Shown in pieces: positions 1 through 43,817 of a DNA stretch of 43,817 nt. The stretch is from a virus. Numbering within the stretch: position 1 is the first letter of the stretch; each line of letters begins with the position of its first letter. The translations under genes and the position numbers were made by a program. The notes beneath the pieces are model-generated. The model did not search any database and was not told the DNA's origin. It saw only the letters and a program-made list of their open reading frames with translations. The stretch lies in the IMG/VR virus record IMGVR_UViG_3300045988_058353. One strand, given 5' to 3'.

Positions 1-55
1 TAAATAAAAAGTGCTTGACAAAGCCATGACAATGATGTAAGATTATATCAACAAA
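1..55. repeat. Window-end redundancy: identical to 43763-43817. Indicates a circular or permuted assembly with a 43762-bp unit.
   Basis: TAAATAAAAAGTGCTTGACAAAGCCATGACAATGATGTAAGATTATATCAACAAA is present at both ends. Confidence 0.9.
15..43 (+). promoter_or_regulatory. Host sigma70-type early promoter P_B (same copy as 43777-43805)
   Basis: TTGACA (15-20), 17-nt spacer AAGCCATGACAATGATG, then TAAGAT (38-43). An A-rich tract lies upstream. The spacer contains a CATGACA operator-like half-site. Confidence 0.7.
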
Positions 56-76
56 ACACAAAGGGAGGAAAACATA

Positions 77-568
77 ATGGAATTTAGAGTATTTATCACA
101 AACTTAGGCAAGTATAACGAGGGTGAACTCGTAGGCAAGTGGCTTGACCTGCCGTGTGCAGACCTTGAAGCTGAACTCGCTGAAATCGGCGTTGCTCCTG
201 GTACTCAGTACGAGGAATACTTCATCACTGACTATGAAAATGAAGTAGGCTACGAGGTAGGCGAATATGAGAACGTGTGGGAACTGAATGAGCTGGCAGA
301 ACGCCTTGATGGTGTACGTGATGTTGACTGGCTGCTTGCTTACATGGATGTTACCGGTGAAGAACTTGACACAGCTATTGACAACTACGAGGAACGCAGC
401 AGCTTTTATCCTGGGCAGACCTTAGAAGATGTTGCCTATGATTTGGTAAATGATTGCTATAATCTGCCCGAAATCGCATTACGCTACTTTGACTATGAAG
501 CGTTCGCACGTGACCTGGGATATGATGGCTACACTGAAACAGATGACGGCGTAATTTGTGTTTGCTAG
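77..568 (+). CDS. ardA: ArdA-family antirestriction protein; occupies the position of T7 gene 0.3
   Basis: GGGAGG lies 8 nt upstream of the ATG. The N-terminus FITNLGKYNEGELVGKW matches the remembered ArdA N-terminal signature (Tn916 Orf18-type YIANLGKYNEGELVG). The protein is very acidic and is the first gene after the early promoters. Confidence 0.85.
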   Translation: MEFRVFITNLGKYNEGELVGKWLDLPCADLEAELAEIGVAPGTQYEEYFITDYENEVGYEVGEYENVWELNELAERLDGVRDVDWLLAYMDVTGEELDTAIDNYEERSSFYPGQTLEDVAYDLVNDCYNLPEIALRYFDYEAFARDLGYDGYTETDDGVICVC

Positions 569-578
569 TTTGTGTAAA

Positions 579-610
579 CTTGCAGGGCATGAAATATCGT
601 GCCTTGCAGG
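579..610 (+). promoter_or_regulatory. Conserved early-leader RNA hairpin, copy 1
   Basis: CTTGCAGGGCATG / loop AAATAT / CGTGCCTTGCAGG gives a 13-bp stem including G-U pairs, so it folds only as + strand RNA. It is paralogous to 1432-1465. Confidence 0.55.
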
Positions 611-657
611 AGCTACACAAAAAGCTCAGACCAACAAAAGAACTAGGAGGAATCAAC

Positions 658-1416
658 ATGACCAACAACTACAATTTGAAACCACAAAGCGAAATCAAGG
701 ACTTCTCAGACCGCATTATTGAACTTGAAGATTTGTACCGCCGTACCAATGACAAAATTTTCGCCGTACACGCAAAGAAAATCGAGTTGCCTGCATTTGT
801 TACTATCCAATCTAAAGACAAGCGCCGTGCGTATGGCTGGTGCTACATCGTACCGAACTGGGTAGCTAGTGACGGCGAAACACGCATGGCGTATGAAATC
901 AACATCGCTGCTGAAACCCTGGGTAGACCTCTTGAAGAAACCTACGTTACCTTAGTGCATGAAATGGTACACCTCTATAATTGTCAAGAGGGTATCAAGG
1001 ACACGGCAGCACGCTCAGACCGCCACAATAAAAAATTCGGTGCTAGGTGTGACCTTATCGGTCTTGCAAACAAAGCTGATGATTATTTGGGCTGGACTAC
1101 ACATTGCCCATGGTCTGAATCAAGTGAAGAACTTCATGAACTTCTTGAAACCTACAAGCAAGAGGGTAGACCGGAACTGTTGCAAGTGAACCGCATGGAC
1201 GAAAAAGGTGTCATCTGGAAACCTGGCAAGGGTGAAAATGGTGGCAATGGTGAAGAGGGTGCAGGTGGTGAAACTAAACCGAAAAAGAAAAAGTCTAATC
1301 AAATCAAGTATGTATGCCCTCATTGTGGTGCGTCAGTCAGAGCTACAAGAAAAGTCAATGTAATGTGTGCTGACTGTGTGGAAATGATGCTGCCAGAGAA
1401 CCAGGACGAAGATTAA
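658..1416 (+). CDS. SprT-like zinc metallopeptidase domain protein with C-terminal zinc ribbon
   Basis: The ATG is preceded by TAGGAGGAATCAAC. It has an HExxH motif (TLVHEMVHLYN), a Gly/Lys-rich linker, and a C-terminal CPHCG...CADC ribbon. The track start at 556 was rejected because it runs through the intergenic hairpin and has no SD. Confidence 0.55.
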   Translation: MTNNYNLKPQSEIKDFSDRIIELEDLYRRTNDKIFAVHAKKIELPAFVTIQSKDKRRAYGWCYIVPNWVASDGETRMAYEINIAAETLGRPLEETYVTLVHEMVHLYNCQEGIKDTAARSDRHNKKFGARCDLIGLANKADDYLGWTTHCPWSESSEELHELLETYKQEGRPELLQVNRMDEKGVIWKPGKGENGGNGEEGAGGETKPKKKKSNQIKYVCPHCGASVRATRKVNVMCADCVEMMLPENQDED

Positions 1417-1431
1417 TAAACATTGTGTTAG

Positions 1432-1465
1432 CTTGCAGGGTACTACAAAGCTAGTGCCTTGCAGG
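1432..1465 (+). promoter_or_regulatory. Conserved early-leader RNA hairpin, copy 2
   Basis: CTTGCAGGGTACTA / loop CAAAGC / TAGTGCCTTGCAGG. The stem base is the same as copy 1, and the stem top shows compensatory changes. Confidence 0.55.
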
Positions 1466-1489
1466 GTGGACACAATAGGACACTAAAAG

Positions 1490-1507
1490 TTGAGTATTAA
1501 TACTCAA
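1490..1507. repeat. 18-bp palindrome TTGAGTATTAATACTCAA, copy 1 of 8
   Basis: Perfect palindrome, intergenic. Confidence 0.9.
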
Positions 1508-1531
1508 TAAGATAACAAGGAGGAATAAAAG

Positions 1532-1903
1532 GTGTTGTTTGAAATGTACGAAACATACCACGAAAAGGTTAGTCCCGATACTTACAAAGGTTCTTTAATT
1601 ACAAATTGTGATGACCTTATCCATGCTATCGAGGATGCAGCAGGTTATGAAATGGCTGATTTGGTGGTGAAGTATCTGAACAAGGTGGAACGCCAGGCAC
1701 AAGAAAAGATTGATGCAAAAATGGAAGAAGCAGAGCATGATGCAACAGAGGCAGAAGAAGCTAAATATGCTTTACATGAAATGGAACGTGCTTTATATGA
1801 TGTAGCGTGTGATTTTGGTGACATTCTTGCAAGAGAGCGCCTTAATCGTGACAAGTTGCACAAAGTCTTTAGAAAATTAATGGATATTTACTGGAAGCGT
1901 TAA
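1532..1903 (+). CDS. Hypothetical acidic early protein
   Basis: GTG start 8 nt after AAGGAGG. No family recognised. Confidence 0.55.
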   Translation: MLFEMYETYHEKVSPDTYKGSLITNCDDLIHAIEDAAGYEMADLVVKYLNKVERQAQEKIDAKMEEAEHDATEAEEAKYALHEMERALYDVACDFGDILARERLNRDKLHKVFRKLMDIYWKR

Positions 1904-1909
1904 ATGTAA

Positions 1910-1927
1910 TTGAGTATTAATACTCGA
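1910..1927. repeat. 18-bp palindrome, copy 2 (TTGAGTATTAATACTCGA, one mismatch)
   Basis: Lies immediately after the stop of the 1532-1903 ORF and is followed by TTTTC. Confidence 0.85.
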
Positions 1928-1932
1928 TTTTC

Positions 1933-1956
1933 TAACTGACACACGTATAGGAGAAC
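1933..1956 (+). promoter_or_regulatory. Phage-RNAP promoter, variant copy, upstream of the antirepressor and RNAP genes
   Basis: TAACTGACACACGTATAGGAGAAC. It shares ACTGACACACG-ATAG with the other copies, and its 3' half resembles T7 CACTATAGGGAGA. It is embedded in a 7-bp inverted repeat, ACACACG (1939-1945) / CGTGTGT (1961-1967). Confidence 0.6.
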
Positions 1957-2029
1957 AAAGCGTGTGTGATACATAAATAAAGTTGCACACGTTGAGTTCT
2001 CTAAATAAAAATCCTTAGGAGGAAACAAA

Positions 2030-2764
2030 ATGGAAAACAAGCAAGTACAAGTATTTAACAATGTGGAGTTCGGTGACGTTCGTGTCATCATGCAGGGTGA
2101 ACAGCCGTGGTTCGTGGGCAAGGATGTGGCTAGTGCGCTGGGTTATGGTGACACAGCGCAAGCTATCAGAAAGCGTGTTGAGAATGAAGATAAAGAGGTT
2201 GTCGAATTGACCACCCCCGGAGGAAAACAGAGAGCTATTATCATCAACGAATCTGGTTTGTATTCTTTCATTCTGTCCAGCAAGCTCCCTAGTGCTAAAC
2301 AGTTCAAACATTGGGTAACATCTGAAATTCTCCCGACGATTCGCCAACATGGTGCATATTTAACGCCGGAGAAAGTCGAAGAAGTGTTGATGAATCCAGA
2401 TACAATCATCAAGCTGGCTACTCAATTAAAGGCAGAACGTGAAGGACGTATCAAGGCAGAAACAGCATTAAAAGCAGCTACACCGAAAGTAGAATACTAT
2501 GATGAATATATGAATCGTGAAGAAACCTTTACTGTGACTTTCGTGGCGAACACATTGGCAATGGGACAACATCAGCTCTATAAGAAACTTAGAGAAATCG
2601 GATGGCTGTGCAAGCCTTATGGATGTTCACACCAAGTAACAGAAGATGCTCCCGAGGATGTGTTTAAAATCGTGCCTGTATTACATACTGGTGGCGGTAA
2701 AGGCTCTCAAATCCGTGTGACTGCCAAAGGTATGAAGAAGATTCAATCCTTGTTTGACAAATAG
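2030..2764 (+). CDS. Bro-N / KilAC-type phage antirepressor
   Basis: AGGAGG SD. The N-terminal region is Bro-N-like (VFNNVEFGDVRVI...PWFVGKDVASALGY...ESGLYSFILSSKLPSAKQFKHWVTSEILPTIRQHGAY). The C-terminal half is KilAC/antirepressor-like. Confidence 0.75.
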   Translation: MENKQVQVFNNVEFGDVRVIMQGEQPWFVGKDVASALGYGDTAQAIRKRVENEDKEVVELTTPGGKQRAIIINESGLYSFILSSKLPSAKQFKHWVTSEILPTIRQHGAYLTPEKVEEVLMNPDTIIKLATQLKAEREGRIKAETALKAATPKVEYYDEYMNREETFTVTFVANTLAMGQHQLYKKLREIGWLCKPYGCSHQVTEDAPEDVFKIVPVLHTGGGKGSQIRVTAKGMKKIQSLFDK

Positions 2765-2782
2765 CGAACAGTAGTTTATACT
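2754..2782 (+). promoter_or_regulatory. Near-consensus sigma70 promoter directly upstream of the RNAP gene
   Basis: TTGACA (2754-2759), 17-nt spacer, TATACT (2777-2782). The -35 element lies in the last codons of the antirepressor gene. Confidence 0.6.
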
Positions 2783-2800
2783 AATGTTCACAATAACAAA

Positions 2801-2849
2801 CAGCCTTTTGCTTTAAAAATCCCTTTAGCAAGGGGCTGTATTTCTTATA
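2801..2849 (+). terminator. Terminator/attenuator-like hairpin in the RNAP leader
   Basis: CAGCCTTTTGCT (2801-2812) pairs with AGCAAGGGGCTG (2827-2838): 12 bp including two G-U pairs, with a 14-nt loop, followed by TATTTCTTATA. It sits between the sigma70 promoter and the RNAP SD. Confidence 0.45.
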
Positions 2850-5449: not shown

Positions 5450-5475
5450 TAACTGACACACGGATAGAAGAAAGA
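5450..5475 (+). promoter_or_regulatory. Phage-RNAP promoter, consensus copy
   Basis: TAACTGACACACGGATAGAAGAAAGA, 18 nt after the RNAP stop. Confidence 0.75.
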
Positions 5476-5576
5476 GAACAATATGTTAACCATAAGATAC
5501 CTATAAGTTAATCTTTTATTGTGTTAATAAAGATAATAACTATAAGTAATCTATAAGTTATCATATTGTTCTCTTT
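5471..5576. repeat. AT-rich element: 15-bp perfect inverted repeat flanking CTATAAGT(T/A)A direct repeats. Candidate origin or RNA-processing hairpin.
   Basis: AAAGAGAACAATATG (5471-5485) pairs with CATATTGTTCTCTTT (5562-5576). Inside are CCATAAGATA, CTATAAGTTA, CTATAAGTAA, CTATAAGTTA and the core TTATTGTGTTAAT. It is paralogous to 19114-19184. Confidence 0.7.
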
Positions 5577-5612
5577 ATGTATTAATCAAAAAGAACTTAG
5601 GAGGATGACAAA

Positions 5613-6599
5613 ATGGATTTAAAAGTCGGTGAAACTTACGTAATGAAAAAAGCAGAAACTAGCTCTGATGGTGGTATCACTTATCTGAAAAAGGGTACTC
5701 ATGTACGCCTGGTGTCTATTGGCAGCAGCCGTGTACTTGTCCAAGACCTTTCTGACGATGCTTTGACGGATGGTATCTGGTCGACGTATGTTGACAACCT
5801 GGTATCACAGGAAGAATATGATGCTCTTGAAGCTGCCGGTGGCGAACCAGAACCTATTCAACTCGAAGAAGGTTCTATCTACGTTATGAAGTATGACGAA
5901 ATTAGTGGGGACGGCAGACGTGTATACCTCAAAAGGGGTGCTCGTGTACGTGTAGAATCTTTTGGTACTTTGAGTGTACTTGTACAAGACCTTTCAGAGG
6001 ATATGGTTGATGATGGTATCTGGATGACCTCTGTGGGTGCTCTGATGCCCTTAGAGGACGCTTTAGAGGTTGGTGCGACTTATTATATGGGCAAGCCAGA
6101 AACTAACACCAGAGGCGACGTTACGTTCCTTAGAAAGGGTGCTATTGTACGTCTGGAAGTATGGGGTAAAGACAGAGTAGTTGTCAAAGATTTGACTGAT
6201 ACAAAAACAGGTGATGGTGTATGGTACACTAATCCGGAATATCTGGTGCCTATTGACAAGCCGGAAGGTAGCATTTCTCGTGAAGAAGCAGAAGCCTCTG
6301 ATAAAAACAGATGCTGTGTCAAAGAAGAAGAGAACAAGTCTATTGCGCCTATCGTACCTCTGGAAGATGTGGTTGTAGTCAAGAATAAACATTATGTATC
6401 TGACCATCAACCGATTGAAACGATGCAAGCAAACATGACCAATGAAGAATTTATCGGATTCCTTAAAGGTAACATTATTAAATATGCGTGCCGTTGCGGT
6501 AAAAAAGATGAGCCGTTGAAGGAAGCTGAGAAGATTAAACAGTACGCTGAGTGGCTTTGTGTTGTCCTCTCTGGTGGCACGATTGACCCTCGTAGCTAA
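5613..6599 (+). CDS. Three tandem ~70-aa repeats fused to a DUF3310-like C-terminal domain
   Basis: AGGAGG SD. Repeats are VGETYVMKK...GTHVRLV...VLVQDLSDD..DGIW, then EGSIYVMKY...GARVRVE...VLVQDLSED..DGIW, then VGATYYMGK...GAIVRLE...VVVKDLTDT..DGVW. The C-terminus FIGFLKGNIIKYACRCGKKD...AEKIKQYAEWL resembles DUF3310. Confidence 0.6.
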   Translation: MDLKVGETYVMKKAETSSDGGITYLKKGTHVRLVSIGSSRVLVQDLSDDALTDGIWSTYVDNLVSQEEYDALEAAGGEPEPIQLEEGSIYVMKYDEISGDGRRVYLKRGARVRVESFGTLSVLVQDLSEDMVDDGIWMTSVGALMPLEDALEVGATYYMGKPETNTRGDVTFLRKGAIVRLEVWGKDRVVVKDLTDTKTGDGVWYTNPEYLVPIDKPEGSISREEAEASDKNRCCVKEEENKSIAPIVPLEDVVVVKNKHYVSDHQPIETMQANMTNEEFIGFLKGNIIKYACRCGKKDEPLKEAEKIKQYAEWLCVVLSGGTIDPRS

Positions 6600-6622
6600 C
6601 TGACACACGGATAGAAGAAAGG
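6597..6622 (+). promoter_or_regulatory. Phage-RNAP promoter, consensus copy
   Basis: TAACTGACACACGGATAGAAGAAAGG. Its TAA is the stop of the upstream gene, and its 3' AAAGGAG serves as the SD for dut. Confidence 0.75.
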
Positions 6623-6635
6623 AGTGCATTAAGAT

Positions 6636-7091
6636 ATGCCAAGAAAAACAACAAGTACAACTTTGAAAATGGGTGTTAAGCTCGTAAATGATTTTGCGAA
6701 GCTCCCACAGAAGGCAAGCGAAGCTGCTGCCTGCTATGACATTGTGTTACCAGATGATGTGTACATTGCTCCACACACAACTAAACTTGTAGGTACAGGT
6801 TTGGTGTTTGATATTCCACAAGGTTATCGTGTGGATGTGTTCCTGCGTAGCTCTGTTGCTGCGAAAACTATGGTACGCCTGGCGAACGCTGTTGGCAAGA
6901 TTGACTGTGACTACACAGGTGAAATCAAGCTGTTGTTGGAGAACACAGGTGGCGTTCCTGTAAGATTCTACCAGGGTGAGCGTGTTGCACAATTTGAAAT
7001 CAATAAGGTTACTGATGTTTCCTTAGAAGAAGTTGATGATGTAAAAGTTACTGAACGTGCTGACGGAGGTTTCGGAAGCACAGGTAAATAA
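6636..7091 (+). CDS. dut: dUTP pyrophosphatase (trimeric dUTPase)
   Basis: Motifs GKIDCDYTGE and C-terminal RADGGFGSTGK. The start could alternatively be the ATG encoding MGVKL 10 codons downstream. Confidence 0.9.
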   Translation: MPRKTTSTTLKMGVKLVNDFAKLPQKASEAAACYDIVLPDDVYIAPHTTKLVGTGLVFDIPQGYRVDVFLRSSVAAKTMVRLANAVGKIDCDYTGEIKLLLENTGGVPVRFYQGERVAQFEINKVTDVSLEEVDDVKVTERADGGFGSTGK

Positions 7092-7109
7092 TCGAGTATT
7101 AATACTCAA
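7092..7109. repeat. 18-bp palindrome, copy 3 (TCGAGTATTAATACTCAA)
   Basis: Lies directly after the dut stop and is followed by TTTG. Confidence 0.85.
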
Positions 7110-7129
7110 TTTGAAATGGAGGAAAACAA

Positions 7130-7564
7130 ATGACAAAATTTAAGTATGGCGATAGAGTTCGCTGCGTGAAGGATGACACCAACGATAGGGTTGTGGGTAA
7201 AGTAGGAACAGTCATTGATTTTCATAGCAAAGAAGTTGTTGGCGTGACTTTTGATGAAGATGTTAATGGACACAGTATGAGTGGTAGAACTTATATAGGT
7301 CATGGCTGGTATCTTAAAGAAAGCGAATTAGAGCTTGTAGATGCAAGTGATACAAAAGTTATCATCACCATTAAAGATAAGACCACTACGGCTAAAATGA
7401 TGGTAGGCAAACACTGTGTTGTAAAAGCGGTTGCTAAATGTTCCCCTAACGATACACTTGACCCTCTGGTTGGCGCACAGATTGCCTTGCAACGCCTTGT
7501 TGAGCAACGTGGCTCTAAATTTGTAGTTAACTCTAAGATGTTTAATGATGTTGAAGTGATTTAA
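7130..7564 (+). CDS. Hypothetical protein
   Basis: GGAGG SD. No confident family assignment. Confidence 0.55.
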   Translation: MTKFKYGDRVRCVKDDTNDRVVGKVGTVIDFHSKEVVGVTFDEDVNGHSMSGRTYIGHGWYLKESELELVDASDTKVIITIKDKTTTAKMMVGKHCVVKAVAKCSPNDTLDPLVGAQIALQRLVEQRGSKFVVNSKMFNDVEVI

Positions 7565-7585
7565 GAAAAGGAGAATGAAACAATA

Positions 7586-8987: not shown

Positions 8988-8989
8988 TC

Positions 8990-34410: not shown

Positions 34411-34456
34411 TAATATTATATAATTAAAGAAAAGAAATTTATAAGGAGGTATAACT

Positions 34457-34627: not shown

Positions 34628-34645
34628 CTTTCAAACAAACTTTAT

Positions 34646-34685: not shown

Positions 34686-34689
34686 CTAA

Positions 34690-34737: not shown

Positions 34738-34746
34738 GTAGTTCAT

Positions 34747-34845: not shown

Positions 34846-34907
34846 AATTTAGCATCAACCTTTCTTAGTTATTTCCGAGCCGTTTAAGAAATCGGATGCT
34901 ATTACTT

Positions 34908-34936
34908 ATTGTATCATTTTGCTTGCTTATTATCAA
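34908..34936 (-). promoter_or_regulatory. sigma70 promoter for the minus-strand peptide transcript
   Basis: On the minus strand: TTGATA (34936-34931), 17 nt, TACAAT (34913-34908). Confidence 0.6.
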
Positions 34937-34957
34937 ATATATTAAGGAGTGATAAAC

Positions 34958-36634
34958 ATAGAAAAAGCATTGAAAACTTCCGTTACCTACAACGGAACAG
35001 GCTCTCAGACTCGCTTTGATTTTCCGTTTGATTACCTGCGGAAATCCTTTGTGCGTGTTTCTGTTAACAATGAGCCAATGGATAACACAGCCGACTACAC
35101 CATTGATAGTCGCACTGTGGTGTTCCATGATGCTCCACCGAGTAACAGTATCATTCGCATTTATCGTGAAACTGATACTTCCAGATTGGTAGTGTGGGCA
35201 GACGCAAGTGTTCTGAAAGCTTCCGATATGACCATCCAACAGGTGCAGCAACTTCACATCTTAGAGGAAGCAAATGATTGGACTAAAACCAACTCTATTG
35301 TTCTCAATGACGAAGGTAACGCATGGCAAGGACGCAACTATCGTGTGTCTAATGTGTCTGACCCGACAGAAGCACAGGATGTTGTAACCAAGAATTACTT
35401 AGAGAACACCGAGGATTCCTTTGTTCAGCGCATGAACGCTATCAAGACACAGACTGAACAATTTGCTAACACAGCAGGTAACAGTAAAGATAGTGCTTAT
35501 AAGAGTGCACAGACTGCTAGTACGTCTGCTGCAAGTGCTGCGGAAAGCGCAAGGTTAGCCGAAGGTTACAAGAATGTAGCTGAAACCGCTAAGAGTGATG
35601 CATCCCTTTATGCTGCCAACGCTAAGACCTCTGCTGATAATGCAGGTGCTAGTAAAGAAGCAGCTCAATCTGCTGCTACTACTGCTAGTAACTTTGCGTC
35701 TGATGCAAGAAACAGCGCAGGTGAAGCAAAGACCTACAAGGACAATGCAAAAACCTACATGGACAATGCTAAGAATTATAGTGAAAATGTCAATGTATTC
35801 ATTCCTAGTGTGTCCTCTGAGGGTGTTTTAAGTTGGACAAATAAAGCTGGATTGACTAACCCCAAAAATGTGAATATCAAGGGTGCAAAAGGTGATACAG
35901 GTACTGCTGCGTCTATCACGATTGGCACTGTGAAAACAGGTGCAGCAGGTAGTAATGCAAGTGTTACCAATAGCGGTACTGCTAGTAATGTTGTGCTGAA
36001 CTTTACGTTGCCTAGAGGTAGAGATGGTGCTGATGGTGGTATCACTGTTGATGCTGAATTAAGTGATACAAGCACGAATCCAGTGCAAAATAAAGTCATT
36101 CATGAAACTTTTACTAGTTTTAATGAAAGGCTGCGTAACGGCTTGCTCACTGTAAAAGGGTCTATTCCTACTAAAGTATCTGCTTTGGAGAACGATGTTG
36201 GCTATCTGACACAGCACCAATCGCTTGATGGGTATGCCCAAAAGTCAACAGCTAACACATGGGGAGAACAACAAGCCTTTAAGTATGCGAAGTTGGGATA
36301 CGAAAAATACACTTCTCCTAAGGTAAGTGGTACAGGTGCTGCACCTTCACTATCCGTAGCACATTATATAGCAACAGGGGCATTTACGCTCAACCTTAAT
36401 AAACTTTCGACTAACTTAGAAATTAAGGAAACCTCTGTGTTTACGGCTTACATTGAGTCCTCTGCTGACTACCCTCTGACCATAACTAATGCAGGAACAC
36501 TTAAATACATTGGCAGTGCTAGTGATGTAGCTATTACAAGTGCAGGTCTGTTGTTAAACATTTTGATAATGAAGGATGCTGAGGGAAATGTGACTAGTAT
36601 CGTACAAGCATCTAAGTTAGAAGGTGGTGCATAA
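34958..36634 (+). CDS. Tail fiber, gp17-like N-terminal adaptor with divergent distal part; start probably ATA 34958
   Basis: ALKTSVTYNGTGSQTRFDFPFDYLRKSFVRV...SRLVVWADASVLKASDMTIQQVQQLHILEEAND parallels T7 gp17 VIKTVLTYQLDGSNRDFNIPFEYLARKFVVV...AQIQTMHVAEEARD. Also has Ala/Ser-rich coiled repeats and a GAKGDTG segment. Confidence 0.85.
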   Translation: MEKALKTSVTYNGTGSQTRFDFPFDYLRKSFVRVSVNNEPMDNTADYTIDSRTVVFHDAPPSNSIIRIYRETDTSRLVVWADASVLKASDMTIQQVQQLHILEEANDWTKTNSIVLNDEGNAWQGRNYRVSNVSDPTEAQDVVTKNYLENTEDSFVQRMNAIKTQTEQFANTAGNSKDSAYKSAQTASTSAASAAESARLAEGYKNVAETAKSDASLYAANAKTSADNAGASKEAAQSAATTASNFASDARNSAGEAKTYKDNAKTYMDNAKNYSENVNVFIPSVSSEGVLSWTNKAGLTNPKNVNIKGAKGDTGTAASITIGTVKTGAAGSNASVTNSGTASNVVLNFTLPRGRDGADGGITVDAELSDTSTNPVQNKVIHETFTSFNERLRNGLLTVKGSIPTKVSALENDVGYLTQHQSLDGYAQKSTANTWGEQQAFKYAKLGYEKYTSPKVSGTGAAPSLSVAHYIATGAFTLNLNKLSTNLEIKETSVFTAYIESSADYPLTITNAGTLKYIGSASDVAITSAGLLLNILIMKDAEGNVTSIVQASKLEGGA

Positions 36635-37035
36635 TGGGACTTAATAGAATGATGATGAAAAATGGTGTAAAGGTTGAAGATGGTAGCAAGAATTGGAGTT
36701 ATAATGAAGCAAATAATAAAACAATAGCTTTTACTGTTCCACCGGGGATTAAAAGAATCAAAGTAACATCATCTATTGATGGGGGTAGGGGTGACCCCGA
36801 TTTATCCAACTATGCTAACATAAAGAATACATCAACCAATAAAGTTTGGGGTGAGGGTTGGTTTTATACTACCTCTGAGGGTGAAGTCGACGATGCCGCA
36901 GATATTGATTCCATTGTAGGCGTAACACCCAATAAAACTTATAGATTGCTGTTTAATTGCTATTATACAAGTGGTGTAACTTTTTCATGGGGTAAAGCAA
37001 TAAATGCGATGACACCCACAGTTGAAGATTATTAA
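36634..37035 (+). CDS. Hypothetical protein downstream of the tail fiber
   Basis: ATAATG overlap with the fiber stop. No family recognised. Confidence 0.5.
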   Translation: MGLNRMMMKNGVKVEDGSKNWSYNEANNKTIAFTVPPGIKRIKVTSSIDGGRGDPDLSNYANIKNTSTNKVWGEGWFYTTSEGEVDDAADIDSIVGVTPNKTYRLLFNCYYTSGVTFSWGKAINAMTPTVEDY

Positions 37036-37051
37036 GTAAAGGAGAAACAAA

Positions 37052-37552
37052 ATGCAAACAAAATATAAATACAAAGACAAAACATATACTCACATCTACC
37101 CTTTGTCAGAAGCCTTAGGGCAGGAAGGTATCTTTATCCCTCTCTCCATCTCCGAAGAAACCCTTTCCAAGTTGGGGGTCGAAGTGACGCACGAGGAAGA
37201 GCCGATTGAGTATTTTAAAAATCGCAGAATCGAAATTTTAAAGATGCAACGTGATAAAGCAGAGGTTGAGCCTATTGAATACAAGGGTAATCTCTATGAT
37301 TACGATGAGAAAGCAAGAGATAGAATCAATGCAGCTATCATTGCTTTAAGTCTGCAAGAAACCACGGCAACAATCGGTTGGACTACGGCTGACAACAAGG
37401 ACGTAGCAGTAACCGCTGATGACCTGCGTATGATTATCGCTAGTGTAGCGATGAGAAGCGATAAGTTACATAGTGCTTATCGTGCTGCCAAGGAAAAGGT
37501 TCTGAAAGCTACCACTGTTGCAGAAGTTGAATCGGTGAACTTAAATGAATAA
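37052..37552 (+). CDS. DUF4376-like tail-fiber assembly/chaperone-type protein
   Basis: IEYKGNLYDYDEKARDRINAAI...IGWTTADNKDVAVTADDLRMI...AEVESV fits the remembered DUF4376 pattern. Confidence 0.45.
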   Translation: MQTKYKYKDKTYTHIYPLSEALGQEGIFIPLSISEETLSKLGVEVTHEEEPIEYFKNRRIEILKMQRDKAEVEPIEYKGNLYDYDEKARDRINAAIIALSLQETTATIGWTTADNKDVAVTADDLRMIIASVAMRSDKLHSAYRAAKEKVLKATTVAEVESVNLNE

Positions 37553-37733
37553 CAACACTGAAATACATGATGAAATCTTACGGAACACCCCACCGATAGG
37601 CGTATCAACCCTAACAGTGCTGGGTGTTCCTCTGTCTGATATGGTCTACGTGATGACCATTATTTATATCTTAGTGCAGATTTTCTGTACTATTTATAGA
37701 ACCTATAAGTCGACAAAGGAGAGTGATGTTTAA
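37545..37733 (+). CDS. Holin candidate (gp17.5 position)
   Basis: 62 aa with a hydrophobic core (GVSTLTVLGVPLSDMVYVMTIIYILVQIFCTIY) and a charged C-terminus. It lies immediately upstream of the endolysin. Confidence 0.55.
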   Translation: MNNNTEIHDEILRNTPPIGVSTLTVLGVPLSDMVYVMTIIYILVQIFCTIYRTYKSTKESDV

Positions 37734-37736
37734 CAC

Positions 37737-38093
37737 ATGAAATTATCAGAACACTTTGATTCCACCGAGTTCGCCTGTAAGTGTGGCTGTGGTGGTATGA
37801 ATGATGGCGCAGGAGTTGACCCACGCTTAGTAGAGGTGTTAGAAGGTATGCGAAAGATTCTGGGTGTACCTTTGGAGCTGTCCTGTGCTTACCGCTGTCC
37901 TACCCATAATGCAGAAGTGGGTGGCGTGTGGAACTCTCAGCACGTATATGGTAAAGCTGCTGATGTTCAGAAACCTGCTGGCGTATCTTTACAGCGTCTT
38001 TATGATGCTGCCGAAGCTGCCGGAGCCGATGGTATTGGTATTTACGATTGGGGAGTACACGTTGACGTAAGGGGGTATGCAGCAAGATGGTAA
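37737..38093 (+). CDS. Peptidase M15-family endolysin (zinc D-Ala-D-Ala / L-Ala-D-Glu peptidase type)
   Basis: Motifs SQHVYGKAADV (SxHxxGxAxD) and GVHVDVR. Confidence 0.8.
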   Translation: MKLSEHFDSTEFACKCGCGGMNDGAGVDPRLVEVLEGMRKILGVPLELSCAYRCPTHNAEVGGVWNSQHVYGKAADVQKPAGVSLQRLYDAAEAAGADGIGIYDWGVHVDVRGYAARW

Positions 38094-38332
38094 AGGTTAA
38101 GGAAGAACTTATTGATAAGATTGCAGAGCTTGAAGTCCAGGCTCTGCTGACTGCCTTGCAAGACCCAACACTAAAGACTGACCCTTCTATTCTTGCTCGT
38201 GCCAGGAGTTTTCTGAAAGATAACAAACTGGTTACCACCCCGGAAACCCCAGGTGTCAAACAGATTCAGAAAGCTACTACCATTGATATTCCGGACTTTA
38301 CGGAAGAAAGTGACAGTGTTGTCTTACAGTGA
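38087..38332 (+). CDS. Small terminase subunit, gp18-like
   Basis: 81 aa, helical, directly upstream of and overlapping the large terminase gene. Confidence 0.55.
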   Translation: MVKVKEELIDKIAELEVQALLTALQDPTLKTDPSILARARSFLKDNKLVTTPETPGVKQIQKATTIDIPDFTEESDSVVLQ

Positions 38333-40086
38333 TACACTGGGCAGATGAACAAGTACAACGTGCGAAGGACGATTTCAGAGTATTCCTGTTCATGGTATGG
38401 AAAGAGATAGGCTTGCCTAATCCTACACCTATCCAAATTGATATAGCGAATACCTTGCAGCACCCACCGAATGACCGCTTCATTTTGGAGGGTTTCCGTG
38501 GTGTTGCAAAGTCCTTCATCACCTGTGCTTTTGCGGTATGGGTTCTTTGGAATGACCCTCAGAAGAAAGTACTGATTGTGTCCGCTGGTAAAGACAGAGC
38601 GGATGCGAACGCTATCTTCATTAAAAGAATTATTTTTACACTATCTTTCCTGGCTCATTTGAAACCTAAAAAAGAACAGAGAGATACACAGAATATCTTT
38701 GACGTAGCACCTGCTTCTCCAGATATTTCCCCGTCTGTAAAATCCGTAGGTATCTATGGTCAGATTACTGGTTCTCGTGCTGATGTGTTGATTGCGGATG
38801 ACGTTGAGATTCCTACCAATAGTGGCACACAGGTTCAACGTGATAAGCTGAGTGAAGCAGTACGTGAATTTGATTCTATCATTAAACCTAAAGGTCTTAT
38901 CATTTACTTGGGTACACCTCAGAATGAAATGTCCTTGTATAATGAATTACAGAATCGTGGTTATGATTGTATAATTTACCCTGTGCAATACCCCGAAGAT
39001 GATGCTATCCGTAACTTCTATGGTGACAGACTAGCTAAGGTTATCGCTGATAGGTATGACACAAACCCAACAGCATACGCTGGTTATCCTACTGACCCTC
39101 AACGCTTCAATGAGGAAGAAATTGATAAGCGTAGGCTATCATATGGTAAAGCTGGCTTTGCTCTGCAATTCTTGCTTAACACAAACCTTAGTGATGCTGA
39201 AAAATATCCGTTGAAGGTGGCTGACTTGATTGTCACGAACCTGGACATTAAGGAAAGCTCTCTCACGTGGTCTTGGGCAAATGGTAACGGACAGCGACAT
39301 GGTGATTTGCCTTGTGTGGCTCTTAAAGGTGACTACTTCTATGCACCTCTTGGACGCTCTGAGGAAACCGCTAAGTATCAGACTGTCATTATGTTCATTG
39401 ACCCCTCTGGACGTGGTAAGGACGAAACCGCATATGCTATTGTAGCTTTTCTTAATGGCTATTTGTTCCTGCTGGATGTGGATGGTTTTAGGGAAGGTTA
39501 TGCGGAAACAGTACTGCGTACCATTGCGACACGTGCGAAAGCCTTTGGTGTTAACAAGATTGTTGTTGAACCTAACTTTGGCGGTGGTATGTTTGCACAG
39601 TTGCTTAAACCCTTTGTAAGCACGATATATCCTGGTTGTGCTATTGAAGATGGCAAAGCTGCTACTATTCAAAAGGAAGCACGTATTATAGATACTCTTG
39701 AACCTGTGATGATGCGACACAAGCTAATTGTGAATCAGCAGGTGATTGAGAATGACTACAAGGTGTATGAAAAAGACCCTCAGTACAGTCTGTTCTATCA
39801 GATGACACGCCTTTCTCGTGAGCGTGGTGCATTGGCGCATGATGATAGACTGGATGCTGTTGAGGGTGCTGTTGCATATTTCCTTGATATGCTCAGTATG
39901 TCAGAGCAACAAGGGTTTGATGAATTGTTGGAAGAGCAGTTAGAAAAATGGTTAGACCCGGATTATGGAGTTTTGTATAAGGATGAATCATGCATACAAG
40001 ATAAGTTTATAGCTAACAAAAAGAAGGACAATTCCTTCAAAAATTGCAATATACTAAACAAATACTATGCAGTTAGAGAAGGCTAA
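38329..40086 (+). CDS. Large terminase subunit, gp19-like
   Basis: DDFRVFLFMVWKEIGLPNPTPIQIDIA...FILEGFRGVAKSFITCAFAVWVLWNDPQKKVLIVSAGKDRADANAIFIK...SPSVKSVGIYGQITGSRADVLIADDVEIP is closely co-linear with T7 gp19. GTG start is coupled to the gp18 stop (GTGA). Confidence 0.95.
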   Translation: MIHWADEQVQRAKDDFRVFLFMVWKEIGLPNPTPIQIDIANTLQHPPNDRFILEGFRGVAKSFITCAFAVWVLWNDPQKKVLIVSAGKDRADANAIFIKRIIFTLSFLAHLKPKKEQRDTQNIFDVAPASPDISPSVKSVGIYGQITGSRADVLIADDVEIPTNSGTQVQRDKLSEAVREFDSIIKPKGLIIYLGTPQNEMSLYNELQNRGYDCIIYPVQYPEDDAIRNFYGDRLAKVIADRYDTNPTAYAGYPTDPQRFNEEEIDKRRLSYGKAGFALQFLLNTNLSDAEKYPLKVADLIVTNLDIKESSLTWSWANGNGQRHGDLPCVALKGDYFYAPLGRSEETAKYQTVIMFIDPSGRGKDETAYAIVAFLNGYLFLLDVDGFREGYAETVLRTIATRAKAFGVNKIVVEPNFGGGMFAQLLKPFVSTIYPGCAIEDGKAATIQKEARIIDTLEPVMMRHKLIVNQQVIENDYKVYEKDPQYSLFYQMTRLSRERGALAHDDRLDAVEGAVAYFLDMLSMSEQQGFDELLEEQLEKWLDPDYGVLYKDESCIQDKFIANKKKDNSFKNCNILNKYYAVREG

Positions 40087-40130: not shown

Positions 40131-40156
40131 TTACTGACACACGTATAGAAGAAAGC
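40131..40156 (+). promoter_or_regulatory. Phage-RNAP promoter (phi-OR-like position after the terminase gene)
   Basis: TTACTGACACACGTATAGAAGAAAGC. Confidence 0.7.
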
Positions 40157-40431: not shown

Positions 40432-40617
40432 ATGGAAGATGCGAAGGTAAAGTTACGAACCTTCTATCTCACTTACCAGAAGTACATCAGCCTTACCTTT
40501 AGTTTAATCACTGTGGCTTTCTTTTATGCCCTTCACCGAGGGGACTTAAAGTACCTCGTTGAAATACTAAAGGTAGCACAAACCCTAATCCAAATCCTGT
40601 GTGGTACTGCTGCATGA
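40432..40617 (+). CDS. Small membrane protein
   Basis: AGAAGGTG SD. One TMD (ISLTFSLITVAFFYAL). Confidence 0.4.
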   Translation: MEDAKVKLRTFYLTYQKYISLTFSLITVAFFYALHRGDLKYLVEILKVAQTLIQILCGTAA

Positions 40618-41099
40618 TAAACAAAAAGATAACAGTGAGTCTACTAGCCGGTGTGTTGATTGGCTGTGTTTTAGCCAACACATACATCTCGGTCAGACGT
40701 GCAGGGAACACAGAAGTCCACACGCAGGAAACATCTAAAATCACCACCGAATCCACTCTCAAAGTGACCACTAAGACCACCAAGAGTGACCCGGATTTGG
40801 TTGTGTCTAATAGGTACGTGGCGAAGATTGATGGTAAGTATGTGGAAGCTCCCTTAAAGACCACAAAAGACACATCCACTGCTGTTGTGTCTACCACTAT
40901 CGACGTGACACCACTTGTTAAACAGATGACCCCTAAATGGGAAGCAGGTATTGGTGTAGGATGTGTTGATAAAAAATTACTGCCCTGTGTTAGCTTGCAG
41001 AGAAACTACAAGCAAGACAAGGCAGTCGAAGCAGTAATACAGATGGATACACAAGGACACTTCAAAGGTGCTAGTGTCATCCATAAGTGGCGATTTTAA
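40614..41099 (+). CDS. Putative lipoprotein
   Basis: ATGA overlap with the previous gene. Signal-like MINKKITVSLLAGVLIGC with a lipobox-like LIGC. The mature part is Thr/Lys-rich and ends ...HKWRF. Confidence 0.45.
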   Translation: MINKKITVSLLAGVLIGCVLANTYISVRRAGNTEVHTQETSKITTESTLKVTTKTTKSDPDLVVSNRYVAKIDGKYVEAPLKTTKDTSTAVVSTTIDVTPLVKQMTPKWEAGIGVGCVDKKLLPCVSLQRNYKQDKAVEAVIQMDTQGHFKGASVIHKWRF

Positions 41100-41140: not shown

Positions 41141-41332
41141 ATGAAGGAAAATGATTGTGTTCCTTCTTTCTACACACCGAAGGAAGTGGCTGCCATTCTG
41201 AGATTCAAGAAGGTAGACCAGGTGTATGCCCTGTGTCACAGCAGGGTCATACCCTCTTTCCAACTCGGTAGGAACTGGCTGATACCTAAAGACAGATTCC
41301 ATGTGTGGTTAGAAGAACAGATAAATGGTTAA
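41141..41332 (+). CDS. xis: Excisionase-family (MerR-like HTH) DNA-binding protein
   Basis: YTPKEVAAILRFKKVDQVYALCHSRVIPSFQLGRNWLIPKDRFHVWL fits the excisionase/HTH_17 pattern. It is adjacent to int. Confidence 0.65.
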   Translation: MKENDCVPSFYTPKEVAAILRFKKVDQVYALCHSRVIPSFQLGRNWLIPKDRFHVWLEEQING

Positions 41333-41593
41333 CCCTTTGTCACTTGATAATACCCCTTCTATTGTGACAAAGATTGTGACACGATTTGCGGAAACCGCAT
41401 ATTAACGCTATTGTAGGAATATTAAATATAACAAACCGTTATAATGGTGTGTTTACCTGTTGTTACCTGTAATTCCCTCTAAACCCTTGATTTCAAGCCT
41501 TTTGTACCACTTTTTAAGGCTTGTGTTTACACATCTTTATCCTTCCTTTACTGTTACTTTGTGACTACATAGTGACAGCTTTTGTGACACTTT
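41333..41593. other. attP candidate: repeat-rich non-coding region between xis and int
   Basis: Six (T/A)GTGAC sites are present: 41336-41343 (inverted), 41361-41372, 41373-41383, 41558-41565, 41568-41577 and 41581-41590. There is also a tandem (T/G)TTACCTGT at 41451-41470. Confidence 0.5.
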
Positions 41594-42775
41594 TTACTTG
41601 GTGCAGTCCATGAGATTAGCAGCTAATTGGTGTTGTTTCTTGATGGTGTGTGCATACACATCAAAGGTGATAGACACACTTGAATGACCTAAGCGTTCAC
41701 TAACAGTTTTGTAATCGTTACCGGATAGTTCAATAAGTTTCGTTGCATTTGTGTGCCTTAGGGAGTGAAACGTGAAGTGCCTGGTAATACCTGCTTTTAA
41801 TAAATATCTTTGAAAACACGCTCGAAGCGTACCTCCTGCTAAAATTTTAGTGCCATTGAAATCCTTAGAGAATACATAATCATCCTTGTCTGAGAACTGG
41901 AAGGATGCTTTGTGTTTTGTAAGAATTTCAATCAGACCCTCTGAGATAACTATAAGGCGATTAGAAGATGCTGTTTTTGGTGTTGAATCCACAATACCTT
42001 TCGACAGGGTGACACGTTGATTATCTACATGAATAGTGTGATTCTTAAAATCAACACGTGACCACCTTAACCCTAAGATTTCACCGATACGCATTCCTGT
42101 TTCATATGCTATCATAAAGGCAACATAGAGTAGAGATGCAGCATCTGGTTTGTGTTGTGGTTTTTCTTCTAATCTCGTATCATAAGCAGCTTTCAGAACC
42201 CCTCTGAGAGCTTCAAATTCGCCTTCTGAGAGGACTTCTATGTCACTCTTAGGGAACTTAGTAGCCACCCATAAACAGCCTTCTGTGGGACTTGTAGAAA
42301 TGATTTTGAGCACTCTGATAGCATAGTTGAATACAATACGTATCAGAGTTAGATAGGCTCTTATAGAGCGTTCTGCTTTGTGTTGTTTACGCATTGCTGT
42401 GATGAACTCATCAATATCCTTTGTGGTAATCTTTGAGATGGTCTTTGTGGCAAGATAAGGAGCAATTACCTTTAGGTGATTTTGGTAGTGGTAGAGTGTT
42501 GTTTCCTTGACATTGGAGCGTGACTGCTTGTACTCAATGTAGTTCTTAGCAAGTGCTTCAAAGGTCATGTTCATACTTACTGCTACATCTGCTTCATCAC
42601 GGAGCTTCATGAAACCACGAAGTAACACACGTGCTTCTGTAAGGCTATCTGCTGTTCCAGAGAGCTGCTTGCGTTTACCATTGACGTAGCCACAGTCGAG
42701 CCTTATGCGATACTTATTGTTATCCAGTTTGGTTATAGAACCTTCACCTTTTGTTCTTCTACGTTTTGTTGACAT
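41594..42775 (-). CDS. int: Tyrosine recombinase / phage integrase
   Basis: AGGAGG SD. C-terminal catalytic region ...GMRIGEILGLRW...HSLRHTNATKLI...LGHSSVSITFDVYAH. Confidence 0.95.
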   Translation of the reverse strand: MSTKRRRTKGEGSITKLDNNKYRIRLDCGYVNGKRKQLSGTADSLTEARVLLRGFMKLRDEADVAVSMNMTFEALAKNYIEYKQSRSNVKETTLYHYQNHLKVIAPYLATKTISKITTKDIDEFITAMRKQHKAERSIRAYLTLIRIVFNYAIRVLKIISTSPTEGCLWVATKFPKSDIEVLSEGEFEALRGVLKAAYDTRLEEKPQHKPDAASLLYVAFMIAYETGMRIGEILGLRWSRVDFKNHTIHVDNQRVTLSKGIVDSTPKTASSNRLIVISEGLIEILTKHKASFQFSDKDDYVFSKDFNGTKILAGGTLRACFQRYLLKAGITRHFTFHSLRHTNATKLIELSGNDYKTVSERLGHSSVSITFDVYAHTIKKQHQLAANLMDCTK

Positions 42776-43063: not shown

Positions 43064-43128
43064 TAACACGTTCGGTCATAATAAAAGTTCACAAATTGTT
43101 TACATTCTGTTACCTGGTTGCTTACTTA

Positions 43129-43146
43129 TTGAGTATTAATACTCGA
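43129..43146. repeat. 18-bp palindrome, copy 7 (TTGAGTATTAATACTCGA)
   Basis: Followed by TAGC and then a run of 10 T. Confidence 0.85.
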
Positions 43147-43158
43147 TAGCTTTTTTTT

Positions 43159-43187
43159 TTGCAAAAATTAGTACCAGGTGCTAAACT
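43159..43187 (+). promoter_or_regulatory. sigma70 promoter for a short + strand transcript
   Basis: TTGCAA (43159-43164), 17 nt, TAAACT (43182-43187), with a T-run upstream. Confidence 0.5.
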
Positions 43188-43193
43188 TTCTGA

Positions 43194-43358
43194 TAACTTA
43201 GTGGGACAAAATGCGTCCCTATGAAAATATAACTGTAATTTTTATCTGTTTGTTTATCATTTAGAATACATTTAGACCACATCTGGAATACATCCAGCCA
43301 CACAAAAAAGCCGTCACATAATGTTACATAATGTAGCAATGTGACGGCTTTTTTTTTA
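43194..43358 (+). ncRNA. Candidate ~165-nt small RNA, or carrier of a 17-codon ORF, in the immunity region
   Basis: Bounded by the promoter above and the strong terminator at 43304-43358. It contains only a 17-codon ORF (MRPYENITVIFICLFII) with a weak SD, and tandem GAATACAT(T/C)(T/C)AG.CCACA repeats. Confidence 0.3.
43304..43358. terminator. Bidirectional intrinsic terminator
   Basis: AAAAAA, then GCCGTCACA (43310-43318), a 21-nt loop, TGTGACGGC (43340-43348), then TTTTTTTTT. It serves the RHH gene on the minus strand and the short + transcript. Confidence 0.8.
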
Positions 43359-43369
43359 CTTTTTGGCTA

Positions 43370-43537
43370 TTAAAAATCTATAGTTTTTCTTGTTAACCAC
43401 TTTTCAATCATTTGTCTTAATAATTCACTTGAATTTATAGAACGCTCTTTACACGCTCTTTGAAACTCTTCTTTTAGTTCCTTATCTAATCTTATTTGAA
43501 TTACTACTCTTTTATTATTTTCATCTGTAAAAGTCAT
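43370..43537 (-). CDS. Ribbon-helix-helix (CopG/Arc-type) DNA-binding protein; candidate immunity repressor (55 aa, not in the ORF track)
   Basis: AGGAGGTG SD. In MTFTDENNKRVVIQIRLDKELKEEFQRACKERSINSSELLRQMIEKWLTRKTIDF, a beta strand (VVIQIRL) is followed by two helices, as in RHH proteins. Confidence 0.6.
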   Translation of the reverse strand: MTFTDENNKRVVIQIRLDKELKEEFQRACKERSINSSELLRQMIEKWLTRKTIDF

Positions 43538-43557
43538 CTTTTTCACCTCCTAAAAAT

Positions 43558-43586
43558 AGTATAGCATATTGTCATGACAAAAGCAA
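43558..43586 (-). promoter_or_regulatory. Promoter of the RHH gene with an embedded 12-bp palindromic operator
   Basis: On the minus strand: TTGCTT (43586-43581), 17 nt, TATACT (43563-43558). The spacer contains the perfect palindrome TTGTCATGACAA (43569-43580). Confidence 0.6.
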
Positions 43587-43626
43587 TCCATTTATTTTCT
43601 AATTGCCATTATATGAAGAAAAGCGA

Positions 43627-43644
43627 TTGAGTATTAATACTCAA
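43627..43644. repeat. 18-bp palindrome, copy 8 (perfect)
   Basis: Lies between the divergent RHH and early promoters and is followed by AAATTTTTT. Confidence 0.9.
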
Positions 43645-43663
43645 AAATTTTTTCAAAAAGTGC

Positions 43664-43692
43664 TTGACATCGTCATGACACTAGTGTATTAT
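43664..43692 (+). promoter_or_regulatory. Host sigma70-type early promoter P_A
   Basis: TTGACA (43664-43669), 17-nt spacer TCGTCATGACACTAGTG, TATTAT (43687-43692). It has the same AAAAAGTGCTTGACA upstream context as P_B. GTCATGAC lies in the spacer. Confidence 0.7.
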
Positions 43693-43706
43693 AATAACCA
43701 ACAGAG

Positions 43707-43724
43707 GTCATGACGCAACATGAC
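43707..43724. promoter_or_regulatory. Operator-like sites downstream of P_A
   Basis: GTCATGAC (43707-43714) and CATGAC (43719-43724). Confidence 0.5.
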
Positions 43725-43762
43725 GCGAAAGAGGGAAACAAAATGAGTAAATGAAAAAAAAA

Positions 43763-43817
43763 TAAATAAAAAGTGCTTGACAAAGCCATGACAATGATGT
43801 AAGATTATATCAACAAA
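43763..43817. repeat. Second copy of the window-end redundancy (equals 1-55, includes P_B)
   Basis: Identical to bases 1-55. Confidence 0.9.

Follow-up and report, generated by a model that had tools for sequence, protein, structure and literature searches.

A probable temperate T7-like phage of Phascolarctobacterium succinatutens and a proposed two-point block of its RNA polymerase gene

The IMG/VR virus record IMGVR_UViG_3300045988_058353, a stretch of 43,817 bp with a G+C content of about 41–42% (the window), encodes a phage of the T7 type that also carries the genes and sites of a lysogeny module; its integration into a host chromosome and the possible silencing of its RNA polymerase (RNAP) are considered here. 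Profile searches recovered the T7 gene order, with early genes followed by those of DNA metabolism and then by the structural and packaging genes, the sole minus-strand exceptions being a tyrosine integrase gene (int) and a gene for a small ribbon-helix-helix (RHH) protein (Table 1). A previous reading of this DNA from its letters alone (the sequence-only reading) had described a T7-like genome with an integrase/excisionase/attP module, and the parts that it listed, the gp6.7/7.3 assignments apart, were found at the places it had given; its class III ribonucleotide reductase (RNR) and ArdA were likewise confirmed. The RNAP is 34–41% identical to the RNAPs of cultured T7-like phages. Megablast of both genome halves against 50,697 phage records gave a sole match of 192 bp at about 75% identity, in the DNA polymerase (DNAP) gene, and nothing in these records matched the part from 25 to 43.8 kb; the phage has no close cultured relative within that collection. 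A search of the whole 43,817 bp found no tRNA gene, and the window gave zero Rfam matches at gathering thresholds.

Table 1. Features of the window, with position, strand and supporting detail.
Feature	Position	Strand	Detail
Terminal overlap of the assembly	1..55 = 43763-43817		100% identity; contains early promoter P2
ArdA anti-restriction protein	77-568	+	first early gene after P2
SprT-like protein	556-1416	+	
Open reading frame (ORF) orf123	1532-1903	+	unknown
Putative phage-RNAP promoters, six motif copies	starts 1935, 5452, 6599, 9119, 19089, 40133	+	
Copy upstream of ant and the RNAP gene	1935..1955	+	
Bro-N/KilAC antirepressor-type protein (Ant)	2030-2764	+	family profiles
Sigma70 promoter directly upstream of the RNAP gene	2754..2782	+	TTGACA, 17 nt, TATACT; 11/12
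LexA-box-like element CGAACAGTAGTTTA	2765-2778		over the -10 hexamer of the RNAP promoter
Leader hairpin	2800..2839	+	13-bp stem; -21.5 kcal/mol, z -3.55; conserved
T7-type single-subunit RNAP	2874-5432	+	852 aa; PF00940 5.7e-106; phrog_414 3.6e-231
Four exact copies of ACTGACACACGGATAGAAGAA	starts 5452, 6599, 9119, 19089 (5452..19109)	+	in the replication/nucleotide-metabolism block
DUF3310/kinase-like protein	5613-6599	+	328 aa
dUTPase	6636-7091	+	
gp2.5-like single-stranded DNA-binding protein	7586-8194	+	
Endonuclease I	8329-8646	+	
Amidase-like protein	8643-8987	+	
Primase/helicase	8990-10636	+	
Class III RNR	11280-13082	+	TIGR02827, 790 bits
DNAP	13283-15040	+	
HNH protein	15092-15532	+	
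ThyX	16448-17044	+	
Ligase	17400-18302	+	
Exonuclease	18289-19065	+	
Morphogenesis, lysis and packaging block	19776..40086	+	T7 order, portal to TerL
Portal	19776-21353	+	
Scaffold	21367-22143	+	
Capsid	22193-23206	+	
Tail tubular A and B	23285-26620	+	
Internal virion proteins	26632-34410	+	
Fibre	34949-36634	+	
Endolysin	37737-38093	+	
TerL	38329-40086	+	
Motif copy downstream of TerL	40133..40153	+	directed toward the small genes and xis
Two small genes between TerL and xis	40432..41099	+	61-aa hydrophobic protein and 166-aa protein; no family match
Putative excisionase gene (xis)	41141..41332	+	63 aa; excisionase-family helix-turn-helix (HTH); PF12728 3.9e-11; TIGR01764 34.7 bits
attP	41333..41593		non-coding, 261 bp between xis and int
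Putative arm-type repeats TTGTGAC/GTGACA	41338 (inverted), 41362, 41374 vs 41559, 41571, 41582		both sides of the core
Common core AGGAATATTAAATATAACAAA[C/T]CGTTATAA	41415..41444		30 bp; in attP, attB, attL and attR
Tyrosine integrase (int)	41594..42775	-	393 aa; PF00589 5.5e-29
Terminator hairpin after the RHH gene	43304..43354		-25.2 kcal/mol, z -6.5; A and T runs on either side
RHH protein	43370..43537	-	55 aa; PF01402 2.9e-9; Arc-like/transcriptional-repressor PHROGs
Candidate promoter of the RHH gene		-	TTGCTT, 17 nt, TATACT; TGTCATGACA in spacer
Putative RHH operator cluster	43571..43714		exact GTCATGAC at 43571, 43672, 43707
Early promoter P1, sigma70	43664..43692	+	TTGACA, 17 nt, TATTAT; 11/12; GTCATGAC in spacer
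Early promoter P2, sigma70	43777..43805 (same sequence as 15-43)	+	TTGACA, 17 nt, TAAGAT; 10/12
Palindrome TTGAGTATTAATACTCAA, eight copies	1490, 1910, 7092, 11280, 15791, 22140, 43129, 43627		18 bp each

From the identity of its two ends it follows that the genome closes into a circle and has a true length of 43,762 bp. The overlap of 55 bp has the size of an assembler k-mer; the ends are bridged exactly by two other public records (NODE_180 of ERZ1755031 in ENA, L011, of which the window is a rotated and reverse-complemented copy, and a contig from another sample, L014; retrieved loci are cited by such handles) and almost exactly in two more assemblies, and independent assemblies of 43,680–43,748 bp share the order TerL, small genes, xis, attP, int, RHH gene, early genes. 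Because of these exact records across the ends and the same order in independent assemblies, the segment of 40.1–43.8 kb, through which the sequence-only reading had closed the genome into a circle while allowing that it might be a chimera, is not one.

Within this segment, the score of the putative excisionase against TIGR01764 exceeds the cut-off of 28.8 bits, and the assignment is made from the domain family and from the adjacency of the gene to attP. Four of the eight genome copies of TTGTGAC fall within the 268-bp attP region, where they occur on both arms. Alignment of the integrase to solved integrases demonstrated a complete catalytic set (R229, K267, H337, R340, H364 and Y374), so that by its sequence the enzyme is not catalytically dead, a possibility left standing by the earlier reading. 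Its nearest phage relatives, at no more than 31% identity, are temperate siphoviruses of Gram-positive bacteria and not T7-like phages, which points to an ancestry of the module different from that of the rest of the genome; the phage looks like a T7 chassis with a Firmicutes-style (Gram-positive-style) lysogeny module.

The host proteins flanking the prophages are named Phascolarctobacterium succinatutens or Phascolarctobacterium sp., which assigns the phage to P. succinatutens, a Negativicute of the human gut (Bacillota, Negativicutes, Acidaminococcales), as its host. Integrated copies were found with junctions at 41415–41444, in contigs of 75 kb and 301 kb, and thus inside the interval 41333–41593 in which the sequence-only reading had advised that they be sought. 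In these two contigs (L009, L010) an identical integrase adjoins host genes (sodium-dependent transporter, arg operon), and in L018–L020 and L023 an identical Xis adjoins a hydantoinase operon; similarity to the window starts at 41415 at the integrase-side junction and ends at 41444 at the Xis-side junction. The Logan contig SRR25482736_3095 has two copies of the core 42,930 bp apart (L009, L187), and the ENA contig k141_93522 holds both prophage ends (L010, L191). When metagenome contigs were searched for the core together with the right-hand host flank, 47 loci were obtained, 45 of them empty attB sites with the transporter-side left flank and two Xis-side junctions. The attB site is intergenic, between the divergent sodium-dependent transporter gene and hydantoinase operon, with no tRNA gene there; nor, since the window itself lacks a tRNA gene, is attB such a gene. 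Integration into the P. succinatutens chromosome, with a full-length prophage of ~43 kb between core repeats, is demonstrated at the sequence level.

Near-identical phages that share TerS, and in many cases Xis, were found integrated at no fewer than six different chromosomal sites, the flanks including pstS (L017, L021, L024), TrmK (L022, L183, L186), MutS2 (L188, L189), LepA (L192) and a ZIP transporter (L001). In L186, L188, L189 and L024 the similarity to the window breaks off at one point, 41396, which suggests that a cassette of core, P' arm and integrase has been swapped at a fixed boundary. In a 2.45-Mb contig of P. faecium (GCA_027494495.1, 2425913-2448432, L007), TerL, xis and int are contiguous, that is, in the attP configuration, and the sister contigs L005, L006 and L008 have the integrated form adjoining nadD; the arrangement in L007 suggests either a tandem or an excised copy, or else a join made by the assembly where the contig ends.

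Negativicutes have two membranes. A T7-type podovirus is therefore less odd in them than the words "Firmicutes host" imply, and of the Firmicutes-type host proposed earlier, the phylogenetic placement stands whereas the strangeness of a T7-like phage in such a host is reduced. RNAP relatives of about 53% identity occur in P. faecium genomes, integrated adjoining nadD. In a scan of one genome per GTDB species with two peptide patterns, which is not exhaustive, the clade was found in three Phascolarctobacterium species, Dialister, Pectinatus and Megasphaera; beyond the Negativicutes the scan returned Proteobacteria and one 333-bp contig of Alkalicoccobacillus (Bacillota), and the Negativicutes were the sole Bacillota with substantial matches. 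All Negativicutes loci, from each of these four genera, have a minus-strand integrase 2–5 kb upstream of the RNAP gene, and in L025 and L027 RHH homologues lie beside the integrase. IMG/VR holds more than 300 relatives, many of them on contigs of 41–45 kb. In P. faecium relatives the DNAP gene is broken by an Endonuclease_7 gene, and in L005 the NrdD gene too is in two ORFs; these splits (L005, 17243-19057 and 19215-21791) may be homing-endonuclease or intein-type insertions, or decay.

A 21-nt motif, ACTGACACACG[G/T]ATAG[A/G]AGAA, occurs in six exact copies, all on the plus strand, versus 0.01 expected, and reads as a putative promoter for the phage RNAP; its ATAG followed by purines resembles the TATAG-GGAGA end of the T7 promoter. 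L009, which has no ant gene, still has a copy directly upstream of the RNAP control region, and the copy at 40133 is found at the same place in L017–L024. Between this last phage promoter and xis, at the right end of the prophage, lies the gene of the 166-aa protein (40599-41099); this protein shows a lipobox-like LIGC as well as a signal peptide, and the P. faecium prophage L007 has a homologue of 32% identity. The small genes at 40432–41099 could encode a spanin or a superinfection-exclusion lipoprotein, and a spanin would fit a host with two membranes.

The RHH gene is divergent from the early operon and faces two near-consensus sigma70 promoters, P1 and P2. These match the sigma70 consensus better than anything else in the control region, and both have a CATGAC palindrome in the 17-nt spacer, which in P2 takes the form GCCATGAC. 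The genome has three exact copies of GTCATGAC, which are confined to 144 bp of the control region; the spacer of P1 contains one of them, and that of the candidate promoter of the RHH gene itself another. The RHH protein is accordingly named here as a putative lysogeny or immunity repressor. In L009, which has the same integrase, an unrelated 55-aa RHH-like protein is accompanied by TCAGAACTTCTGA repeats in and around the early promoter; in L001 a 68-aa protein, HTH-regulator-like by eye, is accompanied by CCTGTTGACAA inverted repeats around the promoter. Repressor and palindrome thus vary together, which supports their reading as a repressor–operator pair.

The RNAP gene has a sigma70 promoter of its own, and its control region of about 125 bp is without the RHH operator. 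This region is nearly identical in L001, L009, L010 and L016, in which the gene upstream of it differs or is absent. The leader hairpin is a candidate attenuator or RNA processing site. The element CGAACAGTAGTTTA matches CGAAC-N4-GTTCG, the LexA box of Firmicutes, which may not be that of the host, at 8/10. Since nothing in the window matches better than 8/10, and the genome-wide count is below chance, the idea of LexA control rests on the position of the box and on the relatives and not on the window alone. Of nine Negativicutes prophage loci, seven have LexA-like boxes no more than 250 nt upstream of the RNAP gene, versus 0.02–0.12 expected per locus, the Megasphaera locus having a perfect box (CGAACACATGTTCG). 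The box is also present in most IMG/VR lineages, one of which has a 10/10 match (CGAACAAGCGTTCG), matches of 9/10 also occur among the relatives, and Proteobacterial T7-like prophages, taken as a control, have LexA-like boxes at chance level.

Taken together, the window very probably represents a complete temperate T7-like podophage of P. succinatutens in its circularly closing attP form, and its RNAP would be blocked at two points. The integrase recombines the 30-bp core of attP with the identical core of the intergenic attB, giving a prophage flanked by the core. Lysogeny would be stable if the phage RNAP were made only by the host RNAP and this route were blocked twice. At the first point, the RHH protein would bind palindromes of the GTCATGAC type in the spacers of P1, P2 and its own promoter, leaving the early operon (ardA to ant) silent; at the second, the sigma70 promoter of the RNAP gene would be held off by the host LexA or by another invariant factor, and the leader hairpin would attenuate RNAP transcripts from that promoter. 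Some RNAP would be made once DNA is damaged, or in a naive cell; it would amplify its own synthesis in a positive feedback through the phage promoter at 1935, which precedes ant and the RNAP gene, would switch on the remaining phage promoters and would read from the promoter at 40133 through the small genes and xis, so that excision would follow RNAP activity.

Several points weigh against this model. All its regulatory steps are deduced from sequence, and the circular assembly would fit an excised circle, concatemers or terminal repeats equally. No int promoter was found on the minus strand at 42776–43300. The RHH protein could be a Cro-like or Arc-like modulator and not a maintenance repressor. 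The LexA-like box of the window is weak, with GTTTA as one half-site and a central 4 nt that depart from the RNRY pattern; the box is absent from a lineage with RNAP of 44–45% identity (about a dozen IMG/VR contigs and the Dialister locus L028) and from the Pectinatus locus L029. The 2.5 Mb of retrieved loci hold no lexA or recA gene from which the LexA motif of the host might be read, and no paper giving a LexA motif for Negativicutes was found in the literature. For the Negativicutes clade of T7-like prophages in general it is proposed tentatively, at somewhat less than even likelihood, that the host LexA would directly gate the RNAP promoter, that the RHH or HTH repressor would be interchangeable and block only the early promoters upstream, and that the SOS response would bypass the phage repressor. 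On that reading a small amount of RNAP would amplify itself from one phage promoter, transcribe xis from another and commit the cell, and the RNAP gene itself would be the master element of the lysogeny switch.

Among the alternatives, a single lock survives best, although it appears unlikely. In one form of it the RHH protein alone suffices, the box and the hairpin being unrelated to lysogeny (for example an RNase III-type processing site), a view favoured by the degenerate box of the window and by the precedent of T7, in which an RNase III site lies just upstream of gene 1; in the other, LexA alone maintains lysogeny as in GIL01 and the RHH protein serves immunity or fine tuning, as an RNAP control region that stays constant across varying immunity genes would allow. 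An 11/12 promoter directly before the RNAP gene and without the RHH operator needs another brake in a lysogen, which argues against the RHH protein as the only lock. Furthermore, the LexA-like box recurs in several diverged lineages and repressor and operator co-vary at P1 and P2, so that both elements look functional. A defective or satellite-like prophage, which integrates and excises (attP circles having been assembled) and forms no infectious T7-like virions, is improbable: the evidence consists of sequence alone, the coverage of the contig is low (about 5x) and the NrdD and DNAP genes are split in some relatives (L005), but the T7 core genes of the window are all full-length ORFs that match their families strongly, the promoters form an intact set and near-identical 43.7-kb genomes recur across many independent samples. 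A lytic T7-like phage with a recent, non-functional integrase cassette, or an assembly chimera of phage and mobile element, to which the kinship of the integrase with Gram-positive siphoviruses (no more than 31%) and not with T7-like phages might lend some colour, is refuted by the integrated full-length copies with exact duplication of the core, by the common gene order of the independent assemblies and by the recurrence of the minus-strand integrase 2–5 kb upstream of RNAP in the Phascolarctobacterium, Dialister, Pectinatus and Megasphaera prophages, and deserves hardly any credence.

Temperate T7-like phages as such are known. PMC10134795 gives as established the Pelagibacter phage HTVC019P, the Agrobacterium phage Pasto, the Pseudomonas phage LUZ100 and the P. 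putida KT2440 prophage; it describes such phages as widespread in Gram-negatives and present "to a lesser extent" in Gram-positives (citing Boeckman et al. 2022), and as the proposed repressor of the group it names a MarR-like regulator beside the integrase (citing Boeckman et al. 2022 and Zhao et al. 2019). The statement of the sequence-only reading that phages of the T7 group are obligately lytic is out of date, these four being temperate. A literature search found no paper on T7-like prophages of Phascolarctobacterium or of Negativicutes. What is new is the host clade and the proposed regulatory wiring.

With HTVC019P, Pasto, LUZ100 and the KT2440 prophage, the phage of P. succinatutens shares the T7 chassis, the single-subunit RNAP, a tyrosine integrase between the right end and the early region, and prophage copies in host genomes. 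In LUZ100, too, the RNAP gene is preceded by a phage promoter, which was read as positive feedback under repressor control, and stable lysogens of LUZ100 were hard to obtain (PMC10134795); the corresponding promoter here (1935–1955) implies a self-amplification that needs restraint. The phages with a MarR-type regulator differ in several respects. Their integrase is co-transcribed toward RNAP, whereas here it is on the opposite strand. Profile searches found no MarR-like regulator among the ORFs between int and the RNAP gene (RHH gene, ArdA, SprT-like, orf123 and Ant), and the regulator here is instead the 55-aa RHH protein or, in the sister lineage L001, the 68-aa HTH-like protein. A separate xis lies across attP and follows a phage promoter; attB lies between genes, in contrast to the tRNA association of that group; the RNAP gene is preceded by a sigma70 promoter of its own, on which a LexA-like box lies; the RNAP is only 34–41% identical and the integrase is nearest to those of Gram-positive siphoviruses; and the host is a human-gut Negativicute.

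Compared with coliphage T7 (Autographiviridae), the order of genes from RNAP to terminase is the same, strong host promoters at the left end similarly drive early genes including that of RNAP, and both have a conserved phage promoter of 21–23 nt, with the ATAG here resembling the TATAG of T7 and the last such promoter lying downstream of the terminase gene in both. Here, however, the phage is temperate, with int, xis, attP and a putative repressor, and has ArdA instead of Ocr; NrdD, ThyX and dUTPase are additional, the ligase gene follows the DNAP gene, and the consensus promoters number only six.

LexA-gated prophages are represented by the Bacillus thuringiensis tectivirus GIL01 (LexA plus gp7), by coliphage 186 with Tum and by the Gifsy antirepressors. 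The phage of P. succinatutens would follow their logic, in which a key lytic promoter carries a box for the host LexA and induction is SOS-dependent without a cleavable phage repressor; the gated gene, however, would be that of the phage RNAP, the box is degenerate and the binding of LexA is only predicted. The immI region of P22 (Mnt, Arc) also has a small RHH gene divergent from an operon with a Bro-N/KilAC-type antirepressor, and operators inside the promoter. Here, by contrast, no primary repressor of the C2/CI type is evident, and the operon under putative RHH control leads into the RNAP gene.

T7 serves textbooks as the model of a lytic phage, and no expression system is used more widely than the one derived from it; the study of how a T7-like phage can reside silently in a chromosome is only beginning. 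The present lineage offers abundant natural lysogens in a culturable bacterium of the human gut, together with natural immunity-type variants; attP, attB, attL and attR are cleanly defined, and the compact control region yields sharp predictions on the silencing of RNAP. Temperate T7-like phages are extended to the Bacillota, though only to a two-membrane class, with a Gram-positive-style lysogeny module apparently grafted onto the T7 chassis and with a new pair of RNAP and putative promoter from an anaerobe.

Apart from these elements, the perfect palindrome TTGAGTATTAATACTCAA occurs eight times in the window versus 0.05 expected. Six of the copies are at or just past the 3' ends of plus-strand genes (at most 260 nt from the stop codon), and the remaining two flank the RHH gene. 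L001 keeps variants of it, one of them, GAGGATTAATCCTC, with two changes placed symmetrically. The palindrome folds weakly as RNA (about -9 kcal/mol), and it might serve as a terminator, as a processing hairpin or as a site for protein binding; a role as operator of the repressor was rejected, since L009 retains TTGAGTATTAATACTCAA despite its different RHH protein. Early intergenic regions also contain GC-rich repeats, apparently hairpin-forming (…CTTGCAGGG…GTGCCTTGCAGG…), at 1425–1475 of the window and at 6963-7040, 7582-7642 and 8406-8481 of L001, and these recall the RNase III processing sites of the T7 early region.

Between the gp16-like gene and the fibre gene lies a moron-like cassette of low GC content (0.35; 34396–34860), with a sigma70 promoter of 11/12 and a terminator-like hairpin followed by a T run. 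It encodes a 56-aa protein with two predicted membrane helices (34457–34627) and, on the opposite strand, a hydrophobic Fst-like ORF of 32 aa (34747–34845, minus), possibly a type I toxin. Finally, the DUF3310/kinase-like gene contains an internal duplication of 78 nt (5682–5759 and 5925–6002, 73% identity), which indicates a tandem repeat of a protein segment.

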